Shown here piece after piece: positions 37,266-51,950 of a stretch of DNA of 52,615 nt. The translations under genes and the position numbers were made by a program. The stretch is from the sequence record NC_079181.1. One strand, 5' to 3'. The notes below the pieces were generated by a model, which ran no database searches, was not told where the DNA came from, and worked only from the letters and a program-made list of their open reading frames with translations. Origin of the DNA: Escherichia phage vB_EcoP_Bp7. How positions within the stretch are numbered: position 1 is the stretch's first letter; each line of letters opens with the position of its first letter.

Positions 37266-40200
37266 ATGAAGACAATGGCTAATCAAAAAGATTTAATGAA
37301 GTTGAGCGTTAATGAGTTAATTGCATTAGGCTCTCAAAGCGGTCTGACTTTCCACGCTGGTATGAAGAAGTCGCACATGGTTCAACAACTTAGTGCGAGC
37401 GCTGCTTCGGGATGGCTGGATACAAATGCAGAATTAATGGGTGGGTCGTTTGAAGACGACAGTTTAATTACTGAATCTCTGGGCGACTCTTCCATGATTT
37501 CAGACGCTGCCCACATTGCACAAGTGCTTTCAAGTGCAGGCTACACAGAAGCATTTCATGCAGCAATGAATGGCCCATCACACCATGTAGAAGCTGTTCA
37601 CGCATACATGGAAAGGCTTGGTGTCAACACAGACGATGTGTGGATGCACATGCCAAAGCCAAATCCGAACTTACCGCAAGGTAGTTTCAATATGCTTAAT
37701 GCCTATATGCGAGATACTTTGCAAGGGCATCAAGACATTATGCCGGAAATCCCAGGCCATTATGCTGGCGATATTATGGCAGAATACTCCACCAACCGTG
37801 GAAACATTGCTGACTCTTATAACTACATGGCCCACATGTATGTTGACCGAGAGCAATACAGCAATCATGAACAATACGCAAGAGACATTAGTCGAGTTGC
37901 CAAACGTCTGGAACGAGAGTTACCCTCAGCCTTTAAGGAAGTTGGGTATACATCTGCATCTAATGTAGGAAATAAATCGGCCCCACATATTTCTTACATG
38001 GACGCACTCCCTCAGATTGGCTCTCCTTCAATTGTTTCTGGCATTGCACATCCTCGTGCGCCCCTTAACGCATCTGGACTTCCTCTCGGTTCTTATGGTT
38101 CTGGCATAAATCCAGAATACTCCCTCACTGCATCACTAACTGGTGGCACAGGTTGGAGCGAACCAAGCAAGGCTTTGTATTCTTCTATTAGTGAAGCTGT
38201 TAAATCTGCTGCCAAAGTTTATTCTGGCTCCAAAGGGATGCTGAATACCCGTCACGAAGTATCTGACCGTGACATGATTATGGATAGTGCAACACGCTAC
38301 ACAGATTTGGAAGAAGCCAGGAGCGGGTACGAAAACCTTCGTTCTGAACTTGCAGATGAGCCAGCTTATTCTGCATCAAGTGTTCGAGCTATTCTCGAAA
38401 ACACTTATGATAAAATGGATGCCGAACCTGTTCGCATTCCAAAGATGAAGGGAGCTTCACAGCGAGTCGATAAAGATTCACTGTCAACATCTACAGATTT
38501 TACAGCACAACTTGGGGAGGCCACCAATTGGAACTCTGCAAGAATGCGTCGTGAGGAACTTGCGATTGCAAATATGGATAGTGCTGGATTCCGTGATGTA
38601 TCAGACTATGGTACAGGACGTTCCGAGTCCCCCGTCCGATTCCATGACTTAGAACAGGGCAGCCAAGAGTGGCTGGACTTCCGTAAAAATTATGACATAA
38701 CTGGTTCAACTGTTGGAACCTTCTTAGGAAACAACCCATATACCCGACCTTGGGCTGGGATGATTGATAAGATTGGCTTATCTCGTAGTAAAGAGCACAG
38801 CGATTTCACCAAGAAGATGTTCGCTGATGGTCACAGGACGGAAGAAGAAGCACGCGCTCGTGTTGGTAAGGAATTTGGATTCGATATCAAACAAACTGGC
38901 GCTATAACAAATGACAACTATCCCGCCTTCATGTATTCTCCTGATGGTCTTATTGGGGATGATGCCATTTGGGAGCACAAGAATCCGCAAAGGGCTGGTA
39001 AGTTTGCTGACCTTCTTAAAGGCGACCATCCAGATTACATGGACCAAATTCAATTTGGCTTGCACGTTTCTGGTCGTTCTCGTGCTCTGTTCTCACAAAC
39101 CATCAACGACGAAACACGTTCACAATGGATTGAGAAGGACGAAGGATGGTACGAAAGAAACCGAAATCGCCTTGATTCTGTGCTTGGCCGTCTTGATGCT
39201 GGGCGAGAGTTTGTTAGAAACAATGCTGGGCTAGGGCGAGAAGAGCTGATTGCTGGTGCAAGAAGTGCAATGACTGGTGATGGAATCTGGAAGGATATTC
39301 GTCAAAAGTCCACTCGTGGCTATTCTGCTGCTGCTGGTACTCCAGAAGACCCGTTTATTGGCTCACGCTCTTCGTACAACCCAGAAGCATCCTACTCTGA
39401 CTACAAGCCAAACTTTGTAATGCACGAGCAAAACTTTCCAGCAACCACAGGAAACGGTGATACTGGAAATGACTCGATGGCATTGTCTGTTAAGAAAGGT
39501 ATTCTTGCTGCCCAGGAAGAAAACAGGCAGAAGGGTATTAGTGCAGATGCAGACTTTGATGGCAAAGCCGACTCAATGGGCTGGAACCGTGAAAGATTTG
39601 ATGCTGCCAATGGCGGTGGATATTCTGGCGGTGGCGGTGGTCGTGGCGGCAACTTCACAAGTGGTGGCAACTACTATGATGACTACGGTCGCATGGGTGG
39701 TTCGTTAGCTGCTGGCATTGCTGGTGGCAGTATTGGTTCAGCAACCAACGGAGTTATGCAAGCATTGATGGCGACTCCTGCTGGGCGTATGGCTGCTGTA
39801 GGCATTGGTGCTATTCAGATTGGCAATGAAGCTGCTGAATACATGAATGACTTTATCGGCAACTCGCTTGATGCTGGTGTGATAAATCCTAATGAATATT
39901 CTTCCATGTCGCAAGGCTTGGAGATGTTAGGACTCAACTCACAACAAGCGGCACGTCTGAATCAAACCACACATAGTGCCTACAACACCATGCTTAACGG
40001 CGACCCCAGCGCCGCTGTGAACATCGTTCGCGGAAGTAGGGGATTGCTCACCATAGGTGATATTCGTGCGACAGGCGGCGACCCTGTGGCCCTAGCTCGC
40101 ATCATGCAGGAAAGGGGCAAGGAGCGTGGCTGGAGTCAGGCCCGTATCGCAGGTGCTGCCGAAATGGCTGGCCTGAATGGGATGGCCCGTGCCTACGACC

Positions 40201-40991
40201 GCACGGAATACAGCCATGAGCAAGCTGGTTCGGTGGTAGAAGCGGGTAGAAACTCTGACTTTGCCGAAGGCATGGCTCAGTCAGAAATGTTGCAGGGAAG
40301 CCGCGTACGGATGCTGCCGAGCTACAACGTGCCACAAAGTGTCTTATCTAACGGTGCTTCTGTATTCGAAGCTGGTAGCGATGCACTTGACGGTGTACGA
40401 ACTGGATTCAACAAAACACGAGAATTTGCTGGAAGTGTTTACGACTTTATCGCTCAAGAAGAATCTGGCGGTAGTGAATATAACAGGGATGGTTCTCGTG
40501 TAACAAGTCGTACTGGTGCTCGTGGAATAATGCAAATTCTTCCTTCAACTGCCCGTGACCCAGGATTTGGAATCAAGCCGTCTGATGGAACTCCAGAAGA
40601 TGATGCACGAGTTGGTCGTGAATACTATGACGCAATGTACAAGCGTTATGGCGACCACGAAAAGGCAATGGCTGCTTACACCGATGGTCCTGGCACTGTT
40701 GACAAAGCTATTGACAAGAATGGGCTGGATTGGCTAACTGCTGTTCCTGCACAAGCACAGAATCGCGTTAAAGCATTCCGTGAATGGTCCAAGTCTTCTC
40801 AGTCTTTGGAAGAAGGTGCTACAGGGTTTACCCGTAATGGAATGTCATACGGACAAACCCAAACTGTTGTTAATGTTAAGATTGATGCTAAGGTCAACAA
40901 CCAGACTGCTTCTGCTACAGTTGCAATTCCTGGTGGCCAGACTGTGACTCAACAAATGAACATGAACAACGGTGCGCAACAAAGAAGGTAA
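37266..40991 (+). CDS. tape-measure-like protein with embedded YqaJ-like PD-(D/E)XK nuclease domain and C-terminal lytic transglycosylase domain (1241 aa)
   Basis: Rho_N/SAP-like N-terminus; YqaJ-like EQGSQEWLDFRKNYDITGS with SPDG...IWEHK (D-x10-ExK) around 38630-39090; Gly-rich hydrophobic segment; SLT-like QEESGG...TGARGIMQILPSTA around 40450-40750. Confidence 0.7.
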   Translation: MKTMANQKDLMKLSVNELIALGSQSGLTFHAGMKKSHMVQQLSASAASGWLDTNAELMGGSFEDDSLITESLGDSSMISDAAHIAQVLSSAGYTEAFHAAMNGPSHHVEAVHAYMERLGVNTDDVWMHMPKPNPNLPQGSFNMLNAYMRDTLQGHQDIMPEIPGHYAGDIMAEYSTNRGNIADSYNYMAHMYVDREQYSNHEQYARDISRVAKRLERELPSAFKEVGYTSASNVGNKSAPHISYMDALPQIGSPSIVSGIAHPRAPLNASGLPLGSYGSGINPEYSLTASLTGGTGWSEPSKALYSSISEAVKSAAKVYSGSKGMLNTRHEVSDRDMIMDSATRYTDLEEARSGYENLRSELADEPAYSASSVRAILENTYDKMDAEPVRIPKMKGASQRVDKDSLSTSTDFTAQLGEATNWNSARMRREELAIANMDSAGFRDVSDYGTGRSESPVRFHDLEQGSQEWLDFRKNYDITGSTVGTFLGNNPYTRPWAGMIDKIGLSRSKEHSDFTKKMFADGHRTEEEARARVGKEFGFDIKQTGAITNDNYPAFMYSPDGLIGDDAIWEHKNPQRAGKFADLLKGDHPDYMDQIQFGLHVSGRSRALFSQTINDETRSQWIEKDEGWYERNRNRLDSVLGRLDAGREFVRNNAGLGREELIAGARSAMTGDGIWKDIRQKSTRGYSAAAGTPEDPFIGSRSSYNPEASYSDYKPNFVMHEQNFPATTGNGDTGNDSMALSVKKGILAAQEENRQKGISADADFDGKADSMGWNRERFDAANGGGYSGGGGGRGGNFTSGGNYYDDYGRMGGSLAAGIAGGSIGSATNGVMQALMATPAGRMAAVGIGAIQIGNEAAEYMNDFIGNSLDAGVINPNEYSSMSQGLEMLGLNSQQAARLNQTTHSAYNTMLNGDPSAAVNIVRGSRGLLTIGDIRATGGDPVALARIMQERGKERGWSQARIAGAAEMAGLNGMARAYDRTEYSHEQAGSVVEAGRNSDFAEGMAQSEMLQGSRVRMLPSYNVPQSVLSNGASVFEAGSDALDGVRTGFNKTREFAGSVYDFIAQEESGGSEYNRDGSRVTSRTGARGIMQILPSTARDPGFGIKPSDGTPEDDARVGREYYDAMYKRYGDHEKAMAAYTDGPGTVDKAIDKNGLDWLTAVPAQAQNRVKAFREWSKSSQSLEEGATGFTRNGMSYGQTQTVVNVKIDAKVNNQTASATVAIPGGQTVTQQMNMNNGAQQRR

Positions 40992-44578: not shown

Positions 44579-45711
44579 CAGAGAACGGTTTTGTTCGCAA
44601 GCCTGTGGCCGACGTTGTATCAAATCTTAATAACAAATTCATTGCTGCATTTGGTTCCAACTTTGATATAAGTCCGGAATCTCCTGACGGGCAATATATT
44701 GGAATTATGGCCGATGAAATCGCCTCGTGCTGGGAACAGGCTGAACAAGTATTTAACGCATTCCGTCCAGGTGCTGTATCAGGAATTGGACTAGACAACG
44801 TTTGCGAACTAACAAATACTGTTCGATATGTTGACAAGCCTTCTCAAGCAACTGTCTTGTGCGATGGTGATATGGGAACTACTGTTCCTGCTGGTTCTAT
44901 CGTAACGGATGGCACCATGCGCTTTATTCTCGACACAGATGTAACACTTCCAGGTGACGTAACTGTTATTGCAGAAGAGCCTGGTGAGTATTATGTTGCA
45001 CCGAGAACAATCAACCAAATCGTAACTCCTGTTGCCGGATGGAATTCCGTAATTAACGAAACAGTTGGCGAGACTGGCATTAACTATGAATCAGACCCAC
45101 AACTCCGAGCACGTCGAGAAAAGACTACGGCAGTCAGCAGCACAGCCACAGTCGAAGCCATCTATGCTTCACTCGCTGACCTCGATATTGATTACATTCG
45201 TGTTCGTGATAATGATACCGGCTCTCCTATTGGCAATCAGCCTTCGGGCACTATATTTGTTGTAGTTGATGGCGGTACGAGCAATGATATTGCACGTCGA
45301 ATCTACAATGCCAAAACTGGCGGAGTTCCGACATATGGCGATATCACAATTACTGTAGCAGACTCGAAAGGCTACCCACACGATATTCATTTCAGCCGAC
45401 CAACTTACACTGACATTTATGTCAAAGGTACGTTCCGTCGTCGTGCAAATGCCAACATAAGTTCGAACGATGCTATTCGTCAGCTTACAGATGCAACCAT
45501 TGAATATCTCAACTCCCTGCAACCAGGGCAGAGTGTGGTATGGTCCAACATGTTCGCTCCCATTATGGCTGCAACACAGTATCTTGAAATTGATTCGCTG
45601 TTTATTGGTATTGCACCAAACCCAACTGGCATAGCAACGATAGAGTTGGATATCGACAAACGTGCTCGCGGGGTTGCTGCTAACATAACTTACACTGATG
45701 TGACGGTATAA
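44554..45711 (+). CDS. baseplate J-like protein (385 aa)
   Basis: Size and position in a W-J-I type arrangement. Confidence 0.5.
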   Translation: MATIKYGVTENGFVRKPVADVVSNLNNKFIAAFGSNFDISPESPDGQYIGIMADEIASCWEQAEQVFNAFRPGAVSGIGLDNVCELTNTVRYVDKPSQATVLCDGDMGTTVPAGSIVTDGTMRFILDTDVTLPGDVTVIAEEPGEYYVAPRTINQIVTPVAGWNSVINETVGETGINYESDPQLRARREKTTAVSSTATVEAIYASLADLDIDYIRVRDNDTGSPIGNQPSGTIFVVVDGGTSNDIARRIYNAKTGGVPTYGDITITVADSKGYPHDIHFSRPTYTDIYVKGTFRRRANANISSNDAIRQLTDATIEYLNSLQPGQSVVWSNMFAPIMAATQYLEIDSLFIGIAPNPTGIATIELDIDKRARGVAANITYTDVTV

Positions 45712-45712
45712 T

Positions 45713-46354
45713 ATGGCTGGTAAACATGGCTTAGATATGCTGCTTTCACAGTATGCACTATCGCCAAACCTTCGTAAGTATATTTCAATCTTCTTAGAAG
45801 AGTTTGCAGAAGTTAAACAGGCCATGACTGACTCAGTTAAGTACAGATACTTAGCAGATTCGTTCGGAGTCATGGTTGACGACCTTGCGTATATTGTGGG
45901 AGCTTCTCGTGTAATACAAGGTGCTGCGGCACTTGGGTACTTTGGCTTCTACGCCAACCCAGGTGCATTTCCTGCTGGTGATGACAACGACCCAGGTATT
46001 GGTGGTATTCTGAAATCAGATTACGACAAAGACTCTGGGGACTTTGTTCGAACAGACGGGCAGTTAAAGGATGCAATACGTGCCCGAATCACCAAGATAA
46101 CTGGCAACTGCACCATTGAACAGCTTATCATGTATATTGAATTGGTCGTAGGAAGGAAGCTGAAACTCCAAATCGTAGAAGGGTTTCAGACAATGGACTA
46201 CATTATTCATGAGGAGTTGTCTGTGGCCGAGAAAGTTCTCATGGCCTATATGCTCCCGAACTTTAAGCCTGTTGGAGTTAAGATTACCCTAAGAGATGCT
46301 AAAGGTAACATTGCTCTGGTTTATGGTTCCAAAGATTATCCTCCGGAGAAATAA
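45713..46354 (+). CDS. baseplate/tail protein, gpI-like (213 aa)
   Basis: Position after the J-like gene. Confidence 0.45.
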   Translation: MAGKHGLDMLLSQYALSPNLRKYISIFLEEFAEVKQAMTDSVKYRYLADSFGVMVDDLAYIVGASRVIQGAAALGYFGFYANPGAFPAGDDNDPGIGGILKSDYDKDSGDFVRTDGQLKDAIRARITKITGNCTIEQLIMYIELVVGRKLKLQIVEGFQTMDYIIHEELSVAEKVLMAYMLPNFKPVGVKITLRDAKGNIALVYGSKDYPPEK

Positions 46355-47502
46355 TGACTCAACGTCTTAAGTTTAATTTTCCCTGGGCGCAAGATGGTGA
46401 AGTTAAAGACCCGGACTTGGATACCACTGCGCCAAGTTTTATCGAAAACAGGTACGCCAATCTGGGCTGGGAAGCTGAAAAGCCTCCCAATGAGTGGCAG
46501 AACTTCTTATCTCAAATTAGCGATTTGAAGATTATATCCCTGCTGTTCAGTGGCATTGCTGAGTTTGATTCAAGTGTGACTTATCAAGTTGGTGCAGTAT
46601 CTTCCCTCAATGGTGTTGTTCGTGTATATACACCAACAGGTTGGGAAGAGGTGATGGACCTCAAGAGGGTTGACTATCTTAATGACGTCAGTAACTTGAA
46701 GTCCCTCTACGATAGTCACTTGGCTGCAACCAATCCACATAAAGAAACTGTGGACACCATCACAGACAAAACTTATAGCAAAACTGATATAGATGATGCC
46801 TTTGGAAGCGCCACAGACCCAAGGACCATAGTGTATCATAAGCTACAAACTGGCCGTGTACACCAAGAAACTCCACAACAACTTGGAACACTTCCAACAT
46901 CTGGTGGTAAGTTTTCCGGTCCTGTGTCGCTGTTGGCTGGGATGAAGTTTGGGACAAACGTCACAATTCGAATGAACCCCGAAAACGGGAGAATTGAGAT
47001 GCGTGCAGGTAACAGAGTTCTATCCATTGATGCACTTGGCAATGTTCTGTGGAGCATAGTTGGTGGCGAAGAGTATCCAGTTATGACGGAACTGAACTAC
47101 TCAGAGTTTCAGATTCGCTGGGGAAACAGGTTCGCACTTCCTGTGCCATACCTTGACATGAACATCACCAAAACCCTAAACGACGCATCCTCCGTAAATG
47201 GCTGGACTATCACAACATCTGCCCCTCCTGTTTTCCAGGCTGTAGACGGAGGACTCAGGGTAGATAATAACACAGTAACTTTCGAAGGCTTTCAGAACGC
47301 AGCACCAGGAACTTTTGTGGTTTATGCTATGGATGGTACAGGCAAGAAGTTGCGAGCTGTGGTAGACGCTCCTAGTGGAAACTACACATCAATGGGCACA
47401 CTTCTAACAAACCTGGGCTTGACAAATGCAACGTATGTATCAAGGATTACATACTACCCAAGACTGACAGCCTACAATAAATCAATGTTAGCGAGCGTAT
47501 AA
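46354..47502 (+). CDS. tail fibre protein (382 aa)
   Basis: Position after baseplate genes; contains a fibre-type NPHK motif. Confidence 0.5.
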   Translation: MTQRLKFNFPWAQDGEVKDPDLDTTAPSFIENRYANLGWEAEKPPNEWQNFLSQISDLKIISLLFSGIAEFDSSVTYQVGAVSSLNGVVRVYTPTGWEEVMDLKRVDYLNDVSNLKSLYDSHLAATNPHKETVDTITDKTYSKTDIDDAFGSATDPRTIVYHKLQTGRVHQETPQQLGTLPTSGGKFSGPVSLLAGMKFGTNVTIRMNPENGRIEMRAGNRVLSIDALGNVLWSIVGGEEYPVMTELNYSEFQIRWGNRFALPVPYLDMNITKTLNDASSVNGWTITTSAPPVFQAVDGGLRVDNNTVTFEGFQNAAPGTFVVYAMDGTGKKLRAVVDAPSGNYTSMGTLLTNLGLTNATYVSRITYYPRLTAYNKSMLASV

Positions 47503-48876
47503 ATGGCGATTCGTCCTAAACTGAACCGAGTCTGGACCTCAAACAACTCTGTCGCAAGACGTGACCCAGGGGATGAAAAATATCTCAAGGGTTGGGTTGC
47601 GGAGATTCCGACCTATCAGGTTCTTAACTACCTACAATACAAGATTGACACCACAATGCTTGCACAAGCAGAACGTGGAATCTTTGAGTGGGGCAGTGAT
47701 GTAAGTTATGGCGTTGGTAGTTTGGCTTGGGACGAAACAAACAAAACGATTTATGTTTGTACTGTCGCCAACCCCAACAAAACCTTACGCCCAAGTGCAA
47801 ACTCTGCACAGTGGAGTCCAAGCTCCATTCAAGTTTCTCGTGCGAATTACGACTCAATTGTTGCAGCAATCAATGCACACATTGCAGACGTAACCACAAA
47901 CCCGCACAAGGTAACTGCTGCACAAATTGGTGCATACAACAAGTCTGAACTTGATGCGATTGTGGCCAACTATCGTGCAATGGTTCAAGCGCACGTAACG
48001 GATTACAACAATCCACACAAACTTACTGCGGTCCAGGTTGGTGCTGTCCCTGTGGCTGGTGGTGCATACACTGGTGAAGTTACCTTCACAACCGTGTTTC
48101 TGAATGATTCTAAGACTGCCCAGATTGTTAACGACGGTGGATTGTATCTTCGCAATGGAAGCTACTATCTTGGAATCAACGGGGCCACAGGAAATGCAGA
48201 AGTCGGAACAGCTTCAAGCAAGTCCCCTGTCGTAACTGACTTAACATTCCCGACACTCAAAGTTGCAACTGAACCTGAGTATGCAGTGCCGGAACCAATT
48301 GTTAACATGCCCCTTATTGGCAGCATCAACCTGCGAGCCGGGATTGGTAAGGTCAACAGCAGTGCCAACGAGCCAGTATATGCACCGCAGTTTGGTAATG
48401 CACTATTGGTAAGACATGGTGCTGCTTTTGGGATACGCGGCACTGAAGAGGTGCTGGCAGGTGGTAGACAAGCGACACTTGCCATTGACACCATATTCTC
48501 CGGTACTCCGATTGGAGGTAATTGGTTGTGGGACTTTGGTCTTGGTTGGTTTACAATTCTTGTAACACCCAACAGGGATGTCCGGTGTGAGATTAAAGGG
48601 ACAGGAACTGTTGCAGTATCTAATAGTGTAACCTTGCCGATGAACGAGTGGGTTCGCATTGTTGCTACATACAATGCGGCAACAGGGAGGGTTTGTCTGT
48701 ACATCAATGGCGTAAAAGCATTCGACCTTACCCCAAGTAACCTCCCAACAACAGGATTTAGGGAGGGGACTATCTATAATTCGGTATCAGCATCATATCC
48801 TAATATCTCCACATACTTGCGAAACTTCCGAGTATGGTCTGACGAGTTAACAGACAAACAAGTTTCAACCTTATAG
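47503..48876 (+). CDS. tail fibre protein (457 aa)
   Basis: Repeated tail-fibre motifs TTNPHKVTAAQIGA and NNPHKLTAVQVGA. Confidence 0.55.
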   Translation: MAIRPKLNRVWTSNNSVARRDPGDEKYLKGWVAEIPTYQVLNYLQYKIDTTMLAQAERGIFEWGSDVSYGVGSLAWDETNKTIYVCTVANPNKTLRPSANSAQWSPSSIQVSRANYDSIVAAINAHIADVTTNPHKVTAAQIGAYNKSELDAIVANYRAMVQAHVTDYNNPHKLTAVQVGAVPVAGGAYTGEVTFTTVFLNDSKTAQIVNDGGLYLRNGSYYLGINGATGNAEVGTASSKSPVVTDLTFPTLKVATEPEYAVPEPIVNMPLIGSINLRAGIGKVNSSANEPVYAPQFGNALLVRHGAAFGIRGTEEVLAGGRQATLAIDTIFSGTPIGGNWLWDFGLGWFTILVTPNRDVRCEIKGTGTVAVSNSVTLPMNEWVRIVATYNAATGRVCLYINGVKAFDLTPSNLPTTGFREGTIYNSVSASYPNISTYLRNFRVWSDELTDKQVSTL

Positions 48877-48885
48877 GAATTAAAA

Positions 48886-49929
48886 ATGGCTAAAGGTTAT
48901 TCTTTAGATGCGTTGGTTAGTGAGCACTACATGAAGTCTCGAGTTGCACTAGGGACAACAAACTTAGACACATATACCGGTATGGACAATATCGGTGTGT
49001 TCTACCAATACTCAAATGCCAACGCAACAAGTGAAAATGGGTATCCGGCAGGTGCACAAGCAGGTTCCCTAGAAGTTCTTCCCCACAACGCCAACAAAGA
49101 TGGTCATGTGCTGCAAAGGTACACAAACTTTTCAAATAAACGTATGTGGGTAAGAAGCCAGTCTGGTGGCGCAAGTGATGATAACTTCTACGAGTGGACT
49201 GAGTTCGTTAACATGAACAACATCTACAATGCTATCTACCCAATAGGCATTGTGTTGCAGTTTGACAACGCCACCAACCCGAACAATATGTTCACCGGTA
49301 CTGTGTGGGAACAAATCACAGATGGTCGTTCTGCCCGTGCTGCATTCTATGCGACAGCTGGCACTATTGATGGTCAGATTGGTTCTGTGGGTGGCAGCGA
49401 CTCTGTATCTATTGCTGTAGATAACTTGCCGAGCCACACACACAACATGCGAGCGCATACCCACTCCATCGGTGCTCATACCCACACAATGGCCCATACC
49501 CACTCCATAAACCATGACCACGGTGCGGTTAACACAAGCTCCACTGGTGCTCATACTCACAGTGTGAGTGGCTCTGCTGCCTCCAATGGTGCACACACAC
49601 ATGGTGTGGGTGAAAATGTTACAACCAATGCCGGTAGTGGTAGAACCGTAAACATGAGCACTGGTAAAATAAACCTCTATACTGGCTCTTCTGGTGCCCA
49701 CACTCACACAGTAAGCGGAACTGCTGCATCTGCTGGCGCACACTATCACTCCGTGGACTTGCCAAACTTCACTGGTACAAGTGGTGGCTCAAGTGCTGCA
49801 GACACTGGTGGAACGGCCTTGACTACAGGTGGCCCAAGCAACAACACTTCTGATGCTACGGGCGGTGGCAGCAACCTCAATGTGCGTAACTCCTCACACT
49901 ACTATGCCTTCTGGAAACGGACGGCTTAA
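48886..49929 (+). CDS. tail fibre distal/tip protein with His-rich HxH repeats (347 aa)
   Basis: Repeats of GAHTH / HTHS / HYHS around 49430-49760, resembling metal-coordinating HxH motifs of T4 gp37-type fibre tips. Confidence 0.55.
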   Translation: MAKGYSLDALVSEHYMKSRVALGTTNLDTYTGMDNIGVFYQYSNANATSENGYPAGAQAGSLEVLPHNANKDGHVLQRYTNFSNKRMWVRSQSGGASDDNFYEWTEFVNMNNIYNAIYPIGIVLQFDNATNPNNMFTGTVWEQITDGRSARAAFYATAGTIDGQIGSVGGSDSVSIAVDNLPSHTHNMRAHTHSIGAHTHTMAHTHSINHDHGAVNTSSTGAHTHSVSGSAASNGAHTHGVGENVTTNAGSGRTVNMSTGKINLYTGSSGAHTHTVSGTAASAGAHYHSVDLPNFTGTSGGSSAADTGGTALTTGGPSNNTSDATGGGSNLNVRNSSHYYAFWKRTA

Positions 49930-49936
49930 GGAAACA

Positions 49937-50278
49937 ATGGAACGATTATCCATTCAAATGTTTGTGGACCTGATGCACCAATATGGCGTATGGCATGGAT
50001 TATTGGCTGGTCTTACGGCTTTAATTCGTGGGGCATATGAGAGTGAAGGCTTAAGCAAGGCGCTGCTGGATGCGGCGCTGTGCAGCTTAATCGGCCTGTT
50101 TGCCTTTCATGTTGCTGGCACATTTGAGACTTTCACGACTAACGTCACTATGCAGTTAGTATTGGCTATCGTTATTGGTGTCATTGGTGCAAACCTCATT
50201 ATCACAACTGTCAGGGAAAGTTTCTCTGGCGCAATCAAACAACTTAACCCTTTGACGTGGTTCAAGAAGGTACGATGA
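49937..50278 (+). CDS. putative holin (113 aa, three predicted TM segments)
   Basis: ATG at 49937 with AAGGAAA upstream; three hydrophobic stretches; directly upstream of the endolysin. Confidence 0.5.
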   Translation: MERLSIQMFVDLMHQYGVWHGLLAGLTALIRGAYESEGLSKALLDAALCSLIGLFAFHVAGTFETFTTNVTMQLVLAIVIGVIGANLIITTVRESFSGAIKQLNPLTWFKKVR

Positions 50279-50295
50279 AATGATAAGGAACTCGA

Positions 50296-50850
50296 ATGCT
50301 ATCATTCAAAGTCCTTGCAGTTCTGGCAGCTTTAGTTCACATCAACGCCCCAGCTTCGGTTGGGGCAGTGAATTCTGCTATTACAGATTTTGCAAGTCAT
50401 TCCTATTTAAATGGAAGTCTGAAACTATCTTCTTCACAACGCAAAGAGCTAGAATGCTATACTAAAGTTATTTGGTATGAAGCTCGCGGAGAAGACAAAC
50501 ATGGAAAGATTCTGGTAGCTAATGTCGTCCGTAATAGAACCAAGTTCGGGAAGCCATTCGCTAACACCGTTTGTGATGTTGTCTATCAACGCAATCAATT
50601 TGCATGGACACGAGAAGCAAAGAAGAAGAATGCTCAATGGAAGCATGTAGCAAAGATTAATTATGCCACGGAACAACAACAAGTTCTGGACACCATTAAT
50701 GTTGCAATCTCTTTTGTATTATTTAATCAACCCTCTGTCACCAAAGCAACCCACTTTTGTACAGCATCGGAGAAGTGCAACTTCAAGAATGTCAAAGGTT
50801 TGGGACGTTACGGTGGCCACAAATTCTATGAGTATCTAGGAAATCTGTAA
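50296..50850 (+). CDS. endolysin, SleB-like cell wall hydrolase with N-terminal signal/SAR-like segment
   Basis: Hydrolase_2/SleB signature [22 protein letters not shown] ... VVYQRNQF; N-terminal hydrophobic [19 protein letters not shown]. Confidence 0.7.
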
Positions 50851-51950
50851 TGGCTTACACTACCTTTTCACAAACCAAGAATAACCAACTACTAGAGCCA
50901 ATGTTCTTTGGTCAGAACGTTAACGTTGCTCGATATGACCAACAGAAGTATAGCATCTTCGAGAAGTTAATCGAAAAGCAGTTATCTTTCTTTTGGCGAC
51001 CTGAAGAGGTTGATGTTAGTCAAGACCGAATTGACTATGCTGGTCTTCCTGAATGCGAGAAGCACATCTTCACCAGCAATTTACGATACCAAATCCTGCT
51101 TGATTCCATTCAGGGACGTGGACCAACCACAGTTTTGCTACCAATTGTGAGCATTCCTGAGCTGGAAACCTGGATTGAAACTTGGTCATTCTCAGAGACA
51201 ATTCACTCCCGTTCTTACACGCATATTATTCGTAATATTGTCACAGACCCAAGTGTAATTTTCGACGAAATTGTGGAGAATGAGCACATTAAAATGCGTG
51301 CAATTGGCATCTCCCAATATTATGACGAGCTTCAACATCTAACTTCCATGTGGCATCTGCATGAAGATGAAGTAGACCTTCGTGAGCTTAAGAAGAAGCT
51401 GTATTTATGCCTCATGTCCATTAATGCACTAGAAGCAATCCGCTTTTATGTCAGTTTTGCTTGCTCATTTGCCTTCGCTGAACGCAAGTTGATGGAAGGG
51501 AATGCCAAGATTATTCGCTTAATTGCTCGTGATGAAGCACTCCATTTGACCGGAACTCAACACATGCTGAACCTTCTTGCAAGCGGTGTTGATGACCCAG
51601 AAATGGCAGAAATTGCTAAAGAATGCCGTCAAGAATGCCAACTAATGTTCGAAAATGTAGCCCAACAAGAGAAAGATTGGGCTGATTATTTGTTCAAAGA
51701 TGGCTCAATGATTGGCCTAAACAAGCAAATTCTGTGCGGATATGTGGAATATATCACGAATATTCGTATGCAAGCAGTTGGATTAGATGCTCCATTCAAA
51801 GGTGCTACTAACCCGATTCCTTGGATTAACGCATGGCTGAATTCGGATGCTGTACAGGTTGCTCCACAAGAAACGGAAATTAGTTCGTACCTTGTCGGGC
51901 AGATTGATTCCGAAGTGGACACCAATGCTCTGGGCGGATTTGAGCTGTAA
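50850..51950 (+). CDS. nrdB: class Ia ribonucleotide reductase beta subunit, host-like
   Basis: Near-identical over most of its length to remembered E. coli NrdB ([11 protein letters not shown]..., [40 protein letters not shown]-terminal [14 protein letters not shown]). Confidence 0.92.

Follow-up and report, generated by a model that had tools for sequence, protein, structure and literature searches.

Nine HxH motifs in the tail fibre protein of Escherichia phage vB_EcoP_Bp7 point to a T4 gp37-type receptor-binding tip with an exchangeable head

The tail fibre gene that precedes the holin gene of Escherichia phage vB_EcoP_Bp7 encodes a series of histidine-rich HxH motifs, which raises the question whether its product ends in a metal-stabilised receptor-binding tip like that of T4 gp37, and which part of such a tip would decide what the phage adsorbs to. 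The window analysed here is the whole 52,615-nucleotide stretch of record NC_079181.1, which represents all or nearly all of the genome of a phiEcoM-GJ1-type myovirus (Chaseviridae, Cleopatravirinae, Carltongylesvirus). The product of 48886-49929 is 100% identical to the 'putative tail fiber protein [Escherichia phage vB_EcoP_Bp7]' and matches PHROG 2097 'tail fiber protein' with E 2.8e-54. As detailed below, it is very probably a homotrimeric receptor-binding fibre whose C-terminal two thirds form a T4 gp37-type tip, with a metal-riveted needle and a swappable head. The features of the locus are compiled in Table 1.

Table 1. Features of the fibre locus of phage vB_EcoP_Bp7 (positions in the 52,615-nucleotide window).
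Feature	Position	Strand	Residues or length	Basis or remark
First upstream fibre protein	46354-47502		382 aa	
Second upstream fibre protein	47503-48876		457 aa	C-terminal LamG/ConA-like lectin domain
Shine-Dalgarno sequence AGGA	48875-48878	+		7 nt 5' of ATG 48886; read from the sequence
Tail fibre / receptor-binding protein gene	48886-49929	+	347 aa plus stop	ORF
N-terminal peptide MAKGYSLDALVSE, putative docking segment (baseplate or another fibre)	48886-48924	+	aa 1-13	
N-terminal globular domain, possibly pyocin-knob-like, optional in the family	48943-49215	+	aa ~20-110	
Collar domain, gp10/gp12/gp37 D10-like fold	49222-49434	+	aa ~113-183	Pfam PF21939 and gp10 motif
Outgoing needle strand	49435-49602	+	aa 184-239	Seven HxH: aa 184, 191, 198, 204, 210, 223, 237
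Head/tip loop, hypervariable, putative receptor contact	49603-49698	+	aa 240-271	Alignment to gp37 tip subdomain 932-959
Returning needle strand	49699-49875	+	aa 272-330	HxH at aa 272 and 286, then conserved Gly/Ser/Thr-rich stretch
C-terminal strand ...NLNVRNSSHYYAFWKRTA	49876-49926	+	aa 331-347	Expected return into collar, by analogy
Exchanged tip cassette relative to phage Bp10	49300-49899	+		55-75% DNA identity in 100-nt bins
Holin gene	49937-50278	+		RBS AGGAAA, ATG 49937, Pfam Phage_holin_3_1; directly 3' of fibre gene

The genes of the region encode, from 5' to 3', sheath, tube, tail assembly chaperone, a 1241-aa transglycosylase-domain protein and baseplate hub and wedge proteins, followed by a DUF2612 protein (45713-46354), two fibre paralogues, the protein of 48886-49929, a holin, a Hydrolase_2 endolysin and nrdB. 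The position of the gene is orthologous to that of the Chaseviridae/Carltongylesvirus fibre gene (phiEcoM-GJ1 gp72, ST32 ORF76; at least 57% identity), and the orthologues share the order baseplate, two fibre genes, this fibre gene, holin, endolysin, nrdB. The two upstream fibre proteins are 25% identical to each other over their N-terminal ~280 aa (E 9e-16); counted with the protein of 48886-49929, the phage therefore possesses three candidate receptor-binding proteins. None of the three matched an NCBIfam family. Papers on ST32 and PYps23T also apply the name 'tail fiber' to the 1241-aa virion protein encoded at 37266-40991. It has a lytic transglycosylase-like region near its C-terminus (aa ~1057-1170) and a central stretch matching RecE-like exonuclease PHROGs, and its place in the gene order would suit a tape-measure or ejection protein better than a fibre.

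The database entry for the fibre protein (P0001, 332 aa) begins at Met16, 15 codons downstream of the start used here, and thus lacks the invariant MAKGYSLDALV. We favour the long start at ATG 48886 because an AGGA lies 7 nt upstream and because this start encodes the invariant peptide; the deposited start probably lies 15 codons too far downstream. At the other end of the gene, the holin start follows 8 nt after the fibre stop codon, with no chaperone gene in between; in the annotation of phage Bp10 a 113-aa holin comes 7 nt after the fibre stop. A mechanically called holin ORF (49829-50278) opens with GTG 49829 and reaches 108 nt into the fibre gene; the true start is most likely ATG 49937 after AGGAAA, giving the 113 aa annotated in Bp10.

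Nine HxH motifs were found in the fibre protein, at aa 184, 191, 198, 204, 210, 223, 237, 272 and 286 (nt 49435-49749). The original prediction had claimed at least eight within 49430-49760; all eight of its quoted peptides were recovered, all nine motifs fall inside this range, and only NHDHG (aa 210-212) had been overlooked. Such a number is not reached by composition: none of 100,000 residue shuffles of the 347-aa protein contained nine HxH (maximum 7), and in the whole plus-strand frame 0 of the 52.6-kb window there are only 22, nine of them within these 103 codons. The first five motifs are spaced by 6-7 residues; the pairs 223/237 and 272/286 each lie 14 residues apart and bracket a 35-residue gap. 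The Gly/Ser/Ala-rich linkers that had been described are a property of the later motifs, with G/S/A-rich spacers of ~10 residues, and not of the first five, which are joined by just 3-4 residues (NMRA, SIGA, TMA, SIN).

At the DNA level the description of the repeats as tandem did not hold. TRF detected only an 18-nt unit in 2.8 copies at 49456-49508, and five diverged 23-nt copies are present; the HxH repeat is a protein-level motif and not the product of a recent tandem duplication. An origin by DNA tandem repetition or slippage was rejected on the same grounds, the only array being short and diverged (18 nt x2.8). Short dinucleotide runs, (CA)5 at 49435-49444 and (CA)4 at 49592-49601, are created by His-Thr-His codons (CAC-ACA-CAY); located within essential motifs, they are too short to suggest slippage. 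An antisense ORF of 205 aa (49132-49749, minus strand) lies exactly over the HxH region. As the reverse complements of CAY-ACN-CAY contain no stops, we consider it most likely a by-product of His/Thr/Gly codon composition rather than a gene.

The proposed resemblance to the T4 gp37 tip turned out to be true homology, significant by phmmer, profile and hhalign comparison and against shuffle controls. Searching PDB sequences with phmmer retrieved T4 gp37 (2XGF) with E 3.5e-6, a 37-sequence profile matched 2XGF with E 9.5e-9, and hhalign placed aa 187-299 on gp37 879-992 with 97.3% probability (E 2.2e-11; ~35% identity over 113 columns). Histidines H191, H223, H237, H272 and H286 align with gp37 H883, H915, H929, H966 and H980, and the variable loop aligns with the gp37 tip subdomain 932-959 (domain boundaries of gp37 taken from PMC6957217). 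Because both sequences are compositionally biased, three kinds of shuffle control were run. The real profile score of 38.2 bits was reached in none of 1000 shuffles of each kind, the maxima being 0.1 bits for shuffled residues, 18.2 bits for intact HxH blocks placed randomly and 33.5 bits for fixed HxH positions with shuffled spacers. All control scores being lower, the similarity covers the spacing and the spacer sequence and not just the His-rich repeats.

Since the hhalign match is limited to aa 187-299, the collar and the C-terminal strand are tied to gp37 by separate, weaker evidence. The collar matches PF21939 (Gp10_C; E 1.3e-7, 33 bits against a gathering cut-off of 27), in an alignment spanning aa 114-257, and its motif NIYNAIYPIG...NPNN (YPIG...NPNN) matches T4 gp10 (2FKK). 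The C-terminus follows a family-wide pattern, ...W-K/R-R-T-A, whose T4 counterpart is ...IVRLA. In gp37, residues 1010-1026 are part of the collar domain D10 (PMC6957217), and by analogy aa 331-347 would be expected to pack back into the collar. The 14-residue fibre repeat PF03335 (Phage_fiber), with 18.2 bits (E 0.0025, aa 218-231), fell just short of its 20-bit cut-off; a precomputed PF03335 match is on record for the close homologues P0004 and P0019.

With T4 gp37 the Bp7 fibre shares the collar, an out-and-back needle with G-x-H-x-H motifs, a C-terminus of the type ...R-x-A, a small head between two HxH pairs of 14-residue spacing, five HxH and the head in register, and an outgoing strand of similar length (119 residues in Bp7 and 117 in T4). 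It differs in size, having 347 aa and no long shaft ahead of the tip, whereas gp37 has 1026 aa with a shaft, and in its HxH count, with nine motifs (seven outgoing and two returning) against seven in gp37 (three and four). Because of this difference in strand split, not every site can be mapped to a solved iron site. Folding is a further point of difference. T4 gp37 requires gp38 and gp57A in order to fold, and neither these two proteins nor the fibre-assembly protein of PYps16N had a detectable homologue in the window by tblastn and phmmer (best E 0.2). Folding of the Bp7 fibre must therefore differ from that of T4 in this respect, and dependence on gp38 and gp57A is a T4-specific property rather than one that defines the family. 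In T4 as in the unrelated Bp7, the gene for the HxH-tipped fibre adjoins the lysis genes just before the holin gene, with gp38 in between in T4; this order may be a coincidence or a late-operon convention.

Conservation was evaluated in an alignment of 37 homologues with 56-85% identity. All 18 motif histidines are invariant, in contrast to the central residue of the motif, which can be T, S, D, Y, N, A, Q, K, G, H, I or F. Three regions have column entropies of 0.3-0.8 bits, namely collar, proximal needle and Gly/Ser/Thr-rich C-terminal third; the collar is the part of lowest entropy (0.3-0.8 bits), and the Gly/Ser/Thr-rich stretch of the returning strand is of low complexity but conserved (0.5-0.8 bits). 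The entropy peak, 2.0-2.4 bits with indels, lies at aa 241-270 between motifs 7 and 8, the most variable segment of the protein. At the N-terminus, aa 1-11 and 13 are invariant. The layout of seven plus two HxH is kept in 118 of 120 close homologues, among which the head loops, 30-44 aa long, form 17 types at 60% identity. Invariant histidines next to a hypervariable loop match what would be predicted for a metal-stabilised receptor-binding tip.

A structure model was informative for the N-terminal domain. The AF2 monomer, computed with the 37-sequence alignment, was confident for aa ~20-110 only (pLDDT 82-91), and pLDDT was below 50 over most of aa 117-341, needle included, as would be expected for an intertwined trimer. 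Because the monomer model failed on the needle, we infer rather than model the trimer geometry and the binding of metal. Foldseek comparison of the AF2 monomer with the PDB gave no match at E <= 0.001; weak matches of the N-domain were to the AS12 tailspike (E 2e-3) and the R2 pyocin fibre (E 0.012-0.033). A phmmer search with the N-domain alone against PDB sequences found no meaningful relative. The homologous 5' region of SKA49 ORF70 has been assigned as an R-type pyocin knob (PMC10282059), a call with which the weak R2 pyocin matches of our model fit.

Next we asked how general the needle layout is. A search with aa 105-347 retrieved 1,778 cluster representatives at E <= 1e-3 (136 at E <= 1e-10), in which the tip module is always C-terminal, in proteins of 154-1351 aa. 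Topology was analysed for 111 of the best 150 of these 1,778 representatives, with <50% mutual identity, selected for a recognisable collar motif, a C-terminal ending ...[WY]xRxx or VRLA and a clear head gap. In this set (n=111), proteins with a longer stretch between collar and last outgoing HxH also tended to have a longer one between first returning HxH and C-terminus (r = 0.84, p = 4e-31, slope 0.8). Proteins contained 3-17 HxH (median 7; nine in 19 of the 111), and this number tracked needle length (r = 0.91) irrespective of which strand carried the motifs; strand splits included 3+4 in T4-like proteins, 8+1, 5+4, 9+8 and others. A corresponding pair of insertions is seen in P0094, a close homologue with 13 additional residues (two extra HxH) in the outgoing strand and 22 in the returning strand. 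Such length co-variation and paired insertions are the pattern predicted for a needle built as a hairpin with a single axial site at each level. The out-and-back topology is thus supported, at the level of sequence comparison, by the head alignment, the matched strand lengths and the conserved ...R-x-A C-terminus.

In the model that we propose, the gene would encode a short homotrimeric receptor-binding fibre. Each chain would leave the gp10/gp12-like collar as one strand of a six-stranded needle, make a small head loop, run back and terminate inside the collar. At each HxH the three chains would together surround a single metal ion on the three-fold axis (iron in T4) with six imidazoles, and the nine motifs could thus hold up to nine ions that rivet the needle, at seven sites from the outgoing and two from the returning strand. 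The head of ~30 residues between motifs 7 and 8 would contact the host surface, probably LPS or O-antigen, and the fibre would be fixed to the virion by its invariant N-terminal peptide, alone or together with the optional knob domain. Recombination among related phages would exchange head and needle as a cassette, with a change in host range as the outcome. LPS or O-antigen structures are the receptors reported for Carltongylesvirus (PMC13340011), and the hypervariable head probably sets host range. The Chaseviridae literature that we searched contained no fibre-to-receptor assignment, metal determination or mapped receptor-binding determinant; there the annotation of the gene goes no further than 'tail fiber protein', variable or chimeric, and the HxH needle is not mentioned.

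The head is exchanged together with the needle. The closest record in the phage collection, vB_EcoM_Bp10, is 94.9% identical to Bp7 across 45700-51000. In 100-nt bins, identity is 90-100% over 45700-49299 and 93-100% over 49900-51099, with 98-100% over the larger part of the upstream fibre genes and over ~200 nt at the start of the 48886-49929 gene, and 90-97% at 46900-47499 and 49100-49299; the minimum of 55% is reached at 49600-49699, that is, in the head. As the marked drop is limited to 49300-49899, needle and head together constitute an exchanged cassette. Among the 120 close homologues, the loop type of the window is shared only by P0007, which is overall 77% identical to the window protein; a Bp7-type head on so distant a backbone likewise speaks for cassette exchange. 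The second, milder patch of divergence from Bp10, at 46900-47499 (99-100% around it), corresponds to the C-terminal part of the first fibre paralogue.

Modularity extends beyond the close family. In the 212-aa homologue of the Sabourvirus 4HA13, which is without an N-domain, the peptide MARGYSLGGL is fused straight to a collar, followed by six HxH, a head and the ending ...HYYARWKRTA. Conversely, gp79 of Yersinia phage PYps16N keeps the N-terminal peptide (MAKGWSFGGL) and the N-domain, an unrelated C-terminus replaces the needle, and a fibre-assembly chaperone gene follows. These two architectures indicate that the N-terminal peptide is constant, the N-domain optional and the tip interchangeable; a docking role is proposed for the peptide.

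The closest relatives outside Chaseviridae are the fibres of Felixounavirus (Bas63 gp26/gp27, Felix O1 gp76/gp77), which are 30-43% identical over aa 115-292 (tblastn E down to 1e-17). For both long and short fibres of Bas63, a gp37-like collar, an HxH needle with 6-7 motifs and a head have been reported (PMC12609058), and a gp37-type HxH needle has been described for Felix O1 gp76/gp77 (PMC3185647). Unlike the Bp7 fibre, these proteins are much longer, with beta-helix or coiled shafts before the tip, and have fewer HxH. Related Sf14 fibres are single-protein and chaperone-free with such a tip (PMC11821841), and gp37-type needles with seven to nine HxH motifs occur in T4-like phages (PMC6563267). 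Cyanophage A-1(L) gp34 (8KEC, 379 aa) is anchored directly to the baseplate wedge, and its arm binds host cells (PMC10966104). It shares with the Bp7 fibre the overall size and the two-part plan of an N-terminal baseplate-anchoring domain followed by a gp37-like arm (profile match E 0.0017, aa 164-271), but the sequences resemble each other only weakly, and only in the first HxH motifs, and its shoulder domain is unrelated to the Bp7 N-domain. T4 gp10 and gp12 (PF21939) have the collar in common with Bp7 but no HxH needle. The central spikes P2 gpV, phi92 gp138 and Mu gp45 are trimers in which HxH octahedrally coordinates an axial iron (cited in PMC12609058, PMC11821841); they differ from the Bp7 fibre in fold and role, with a single site at a beta-helical membrane-piercing apex, and are unrelated in sequence.

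Where the fibre sits in the virion is the subject of one alternative, in which a protein of the same fold serves as a short-fibre or baseplate adhesin in the manner of T4 gp12/gp10 or the Bas63 STF, and not at the end of a long fibre built from several proteins; its binding would be irreversible and would follow an initial contact through the two upstream fibre proteins. We regard this as a serious contender, if a slightly disfavoured one. The top Pfam match is the gp10 C-terminal collar domain, the protein has just 347 aa and an invariant N-terminal peptide of its own, two further, paralogous fibre genes precede it, one encoding a LamG lectin domain, both kinds of Bas63 fibre bear the tip (PMC12609058), and A-1(L) gp34, of comparable size (379 aa), anchors directly to the wedge (PMC10966104). 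Against this, the needle is about as long as that of T4 gp37; the present data fit a 'long' role as well as a 'short' one. The assignment would alter the place of the fibre in the virion and not the mechanism of the HxH needle. That the gene encodes a distal fibre, as originally proposed, is unsupported: with an invariant docking peptide of its own, the protein looks to be a short fibre complete in itself, and it resembles one-protein fibres such as A-1(L) gp34. With the exception of 'distal' and 'tandem', the interpretation given in the original prediction is supported.

Two other alternatives concern what the needle does. Specificity might reside mainly in the N-terminal knob (aa 20-110) or in the upstream LamG fibre, the needle being a rigid spacer. 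A second entropy peak at aa 91-100 (2.19 bits), the ConA-like lectin domain of the upstream 457-aa protein and the weak structural matches to the R2 pyocin fibre, whose knob binds LPS (pyocin knob per PMC10282059), would fit such a division of labour. We nevertheless consider it unlikely: Bp7 and Bp10 share an N-domain of about 100% identity but have exchanged needles and heads, 4HA13 retains needle and head without an N-domain, the head loop with its 17 types is by far the most variable segment, and in T4 the residues of the tip are the receptor contacts (PMC6957217). Less probable still is that the HxH motifs bind no metal, being conserved for instance for His stacking or pH sensing, or that they bind a metal other than iron. 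The nine motifs are packed more densely than in T4, in a needle of T4-like length, and related collar-domain proteins, such as T4 gp12, use zinc. However, both histidines of each motif are absolutely conserved in the 37 sequences around a variable middle residue, five motifs are in register with crystallographic iron sites, and HxH number scales with needle length across the family. T4 requires its iron-binding histidines and the residues on the tip surface in order to infect (PMC6957217). A metal-riveted needle carrying the specificity in its head thus continues to be the reading that we favour.

Within that reading, the Bp7 fibre might be a minimal, chaperone-independent version of the gp37 needle (347 aa, with a Sabourvirus relative of 212 aa), in which seven of nine sites are supplied by the outgoing strand and the returning strand acts as a Gly/Ser/Thr filler. 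We put this forward tentatively and consider it rather doubtful. The arrangement near the collar would then be the reverse of that in T4, either strand could supply the site at a given needle level, and the protein would offer a compact scaffold on which head loops of ~30 residues (17 natural types) could be swapped to reprogramme host range.

The fibre tip of Bp7 is an unexceptional member of the gp37-type family, which is very large and has been described before, its 7+2 split is a minor variant among many layouts, and existing knowledge of HxH metal needles is unchanged by this finding. What the analysis pinpoints are the likely determinants of host range, namely the head loop at 49603-49698, in which ~100 nt most likely decide the adsorption target of the phage, and the surrounding cassette at ~49300-49899. 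Knowing this loop, and that needle and head travel as a unit between Carltongylesvirus genomes which are nearly identical elsewhere, is of use in predicting host range and in engineering therapeutic coliphages of this group. Finally, the 'Staphylococcus phage Pel53' (PP952070.1, P0111), with Staphylococcus hyicus as its stated host, is 86% identical at the DNA level to this coliphage region and encodes the same fibre; its host assignment looks doubtful.
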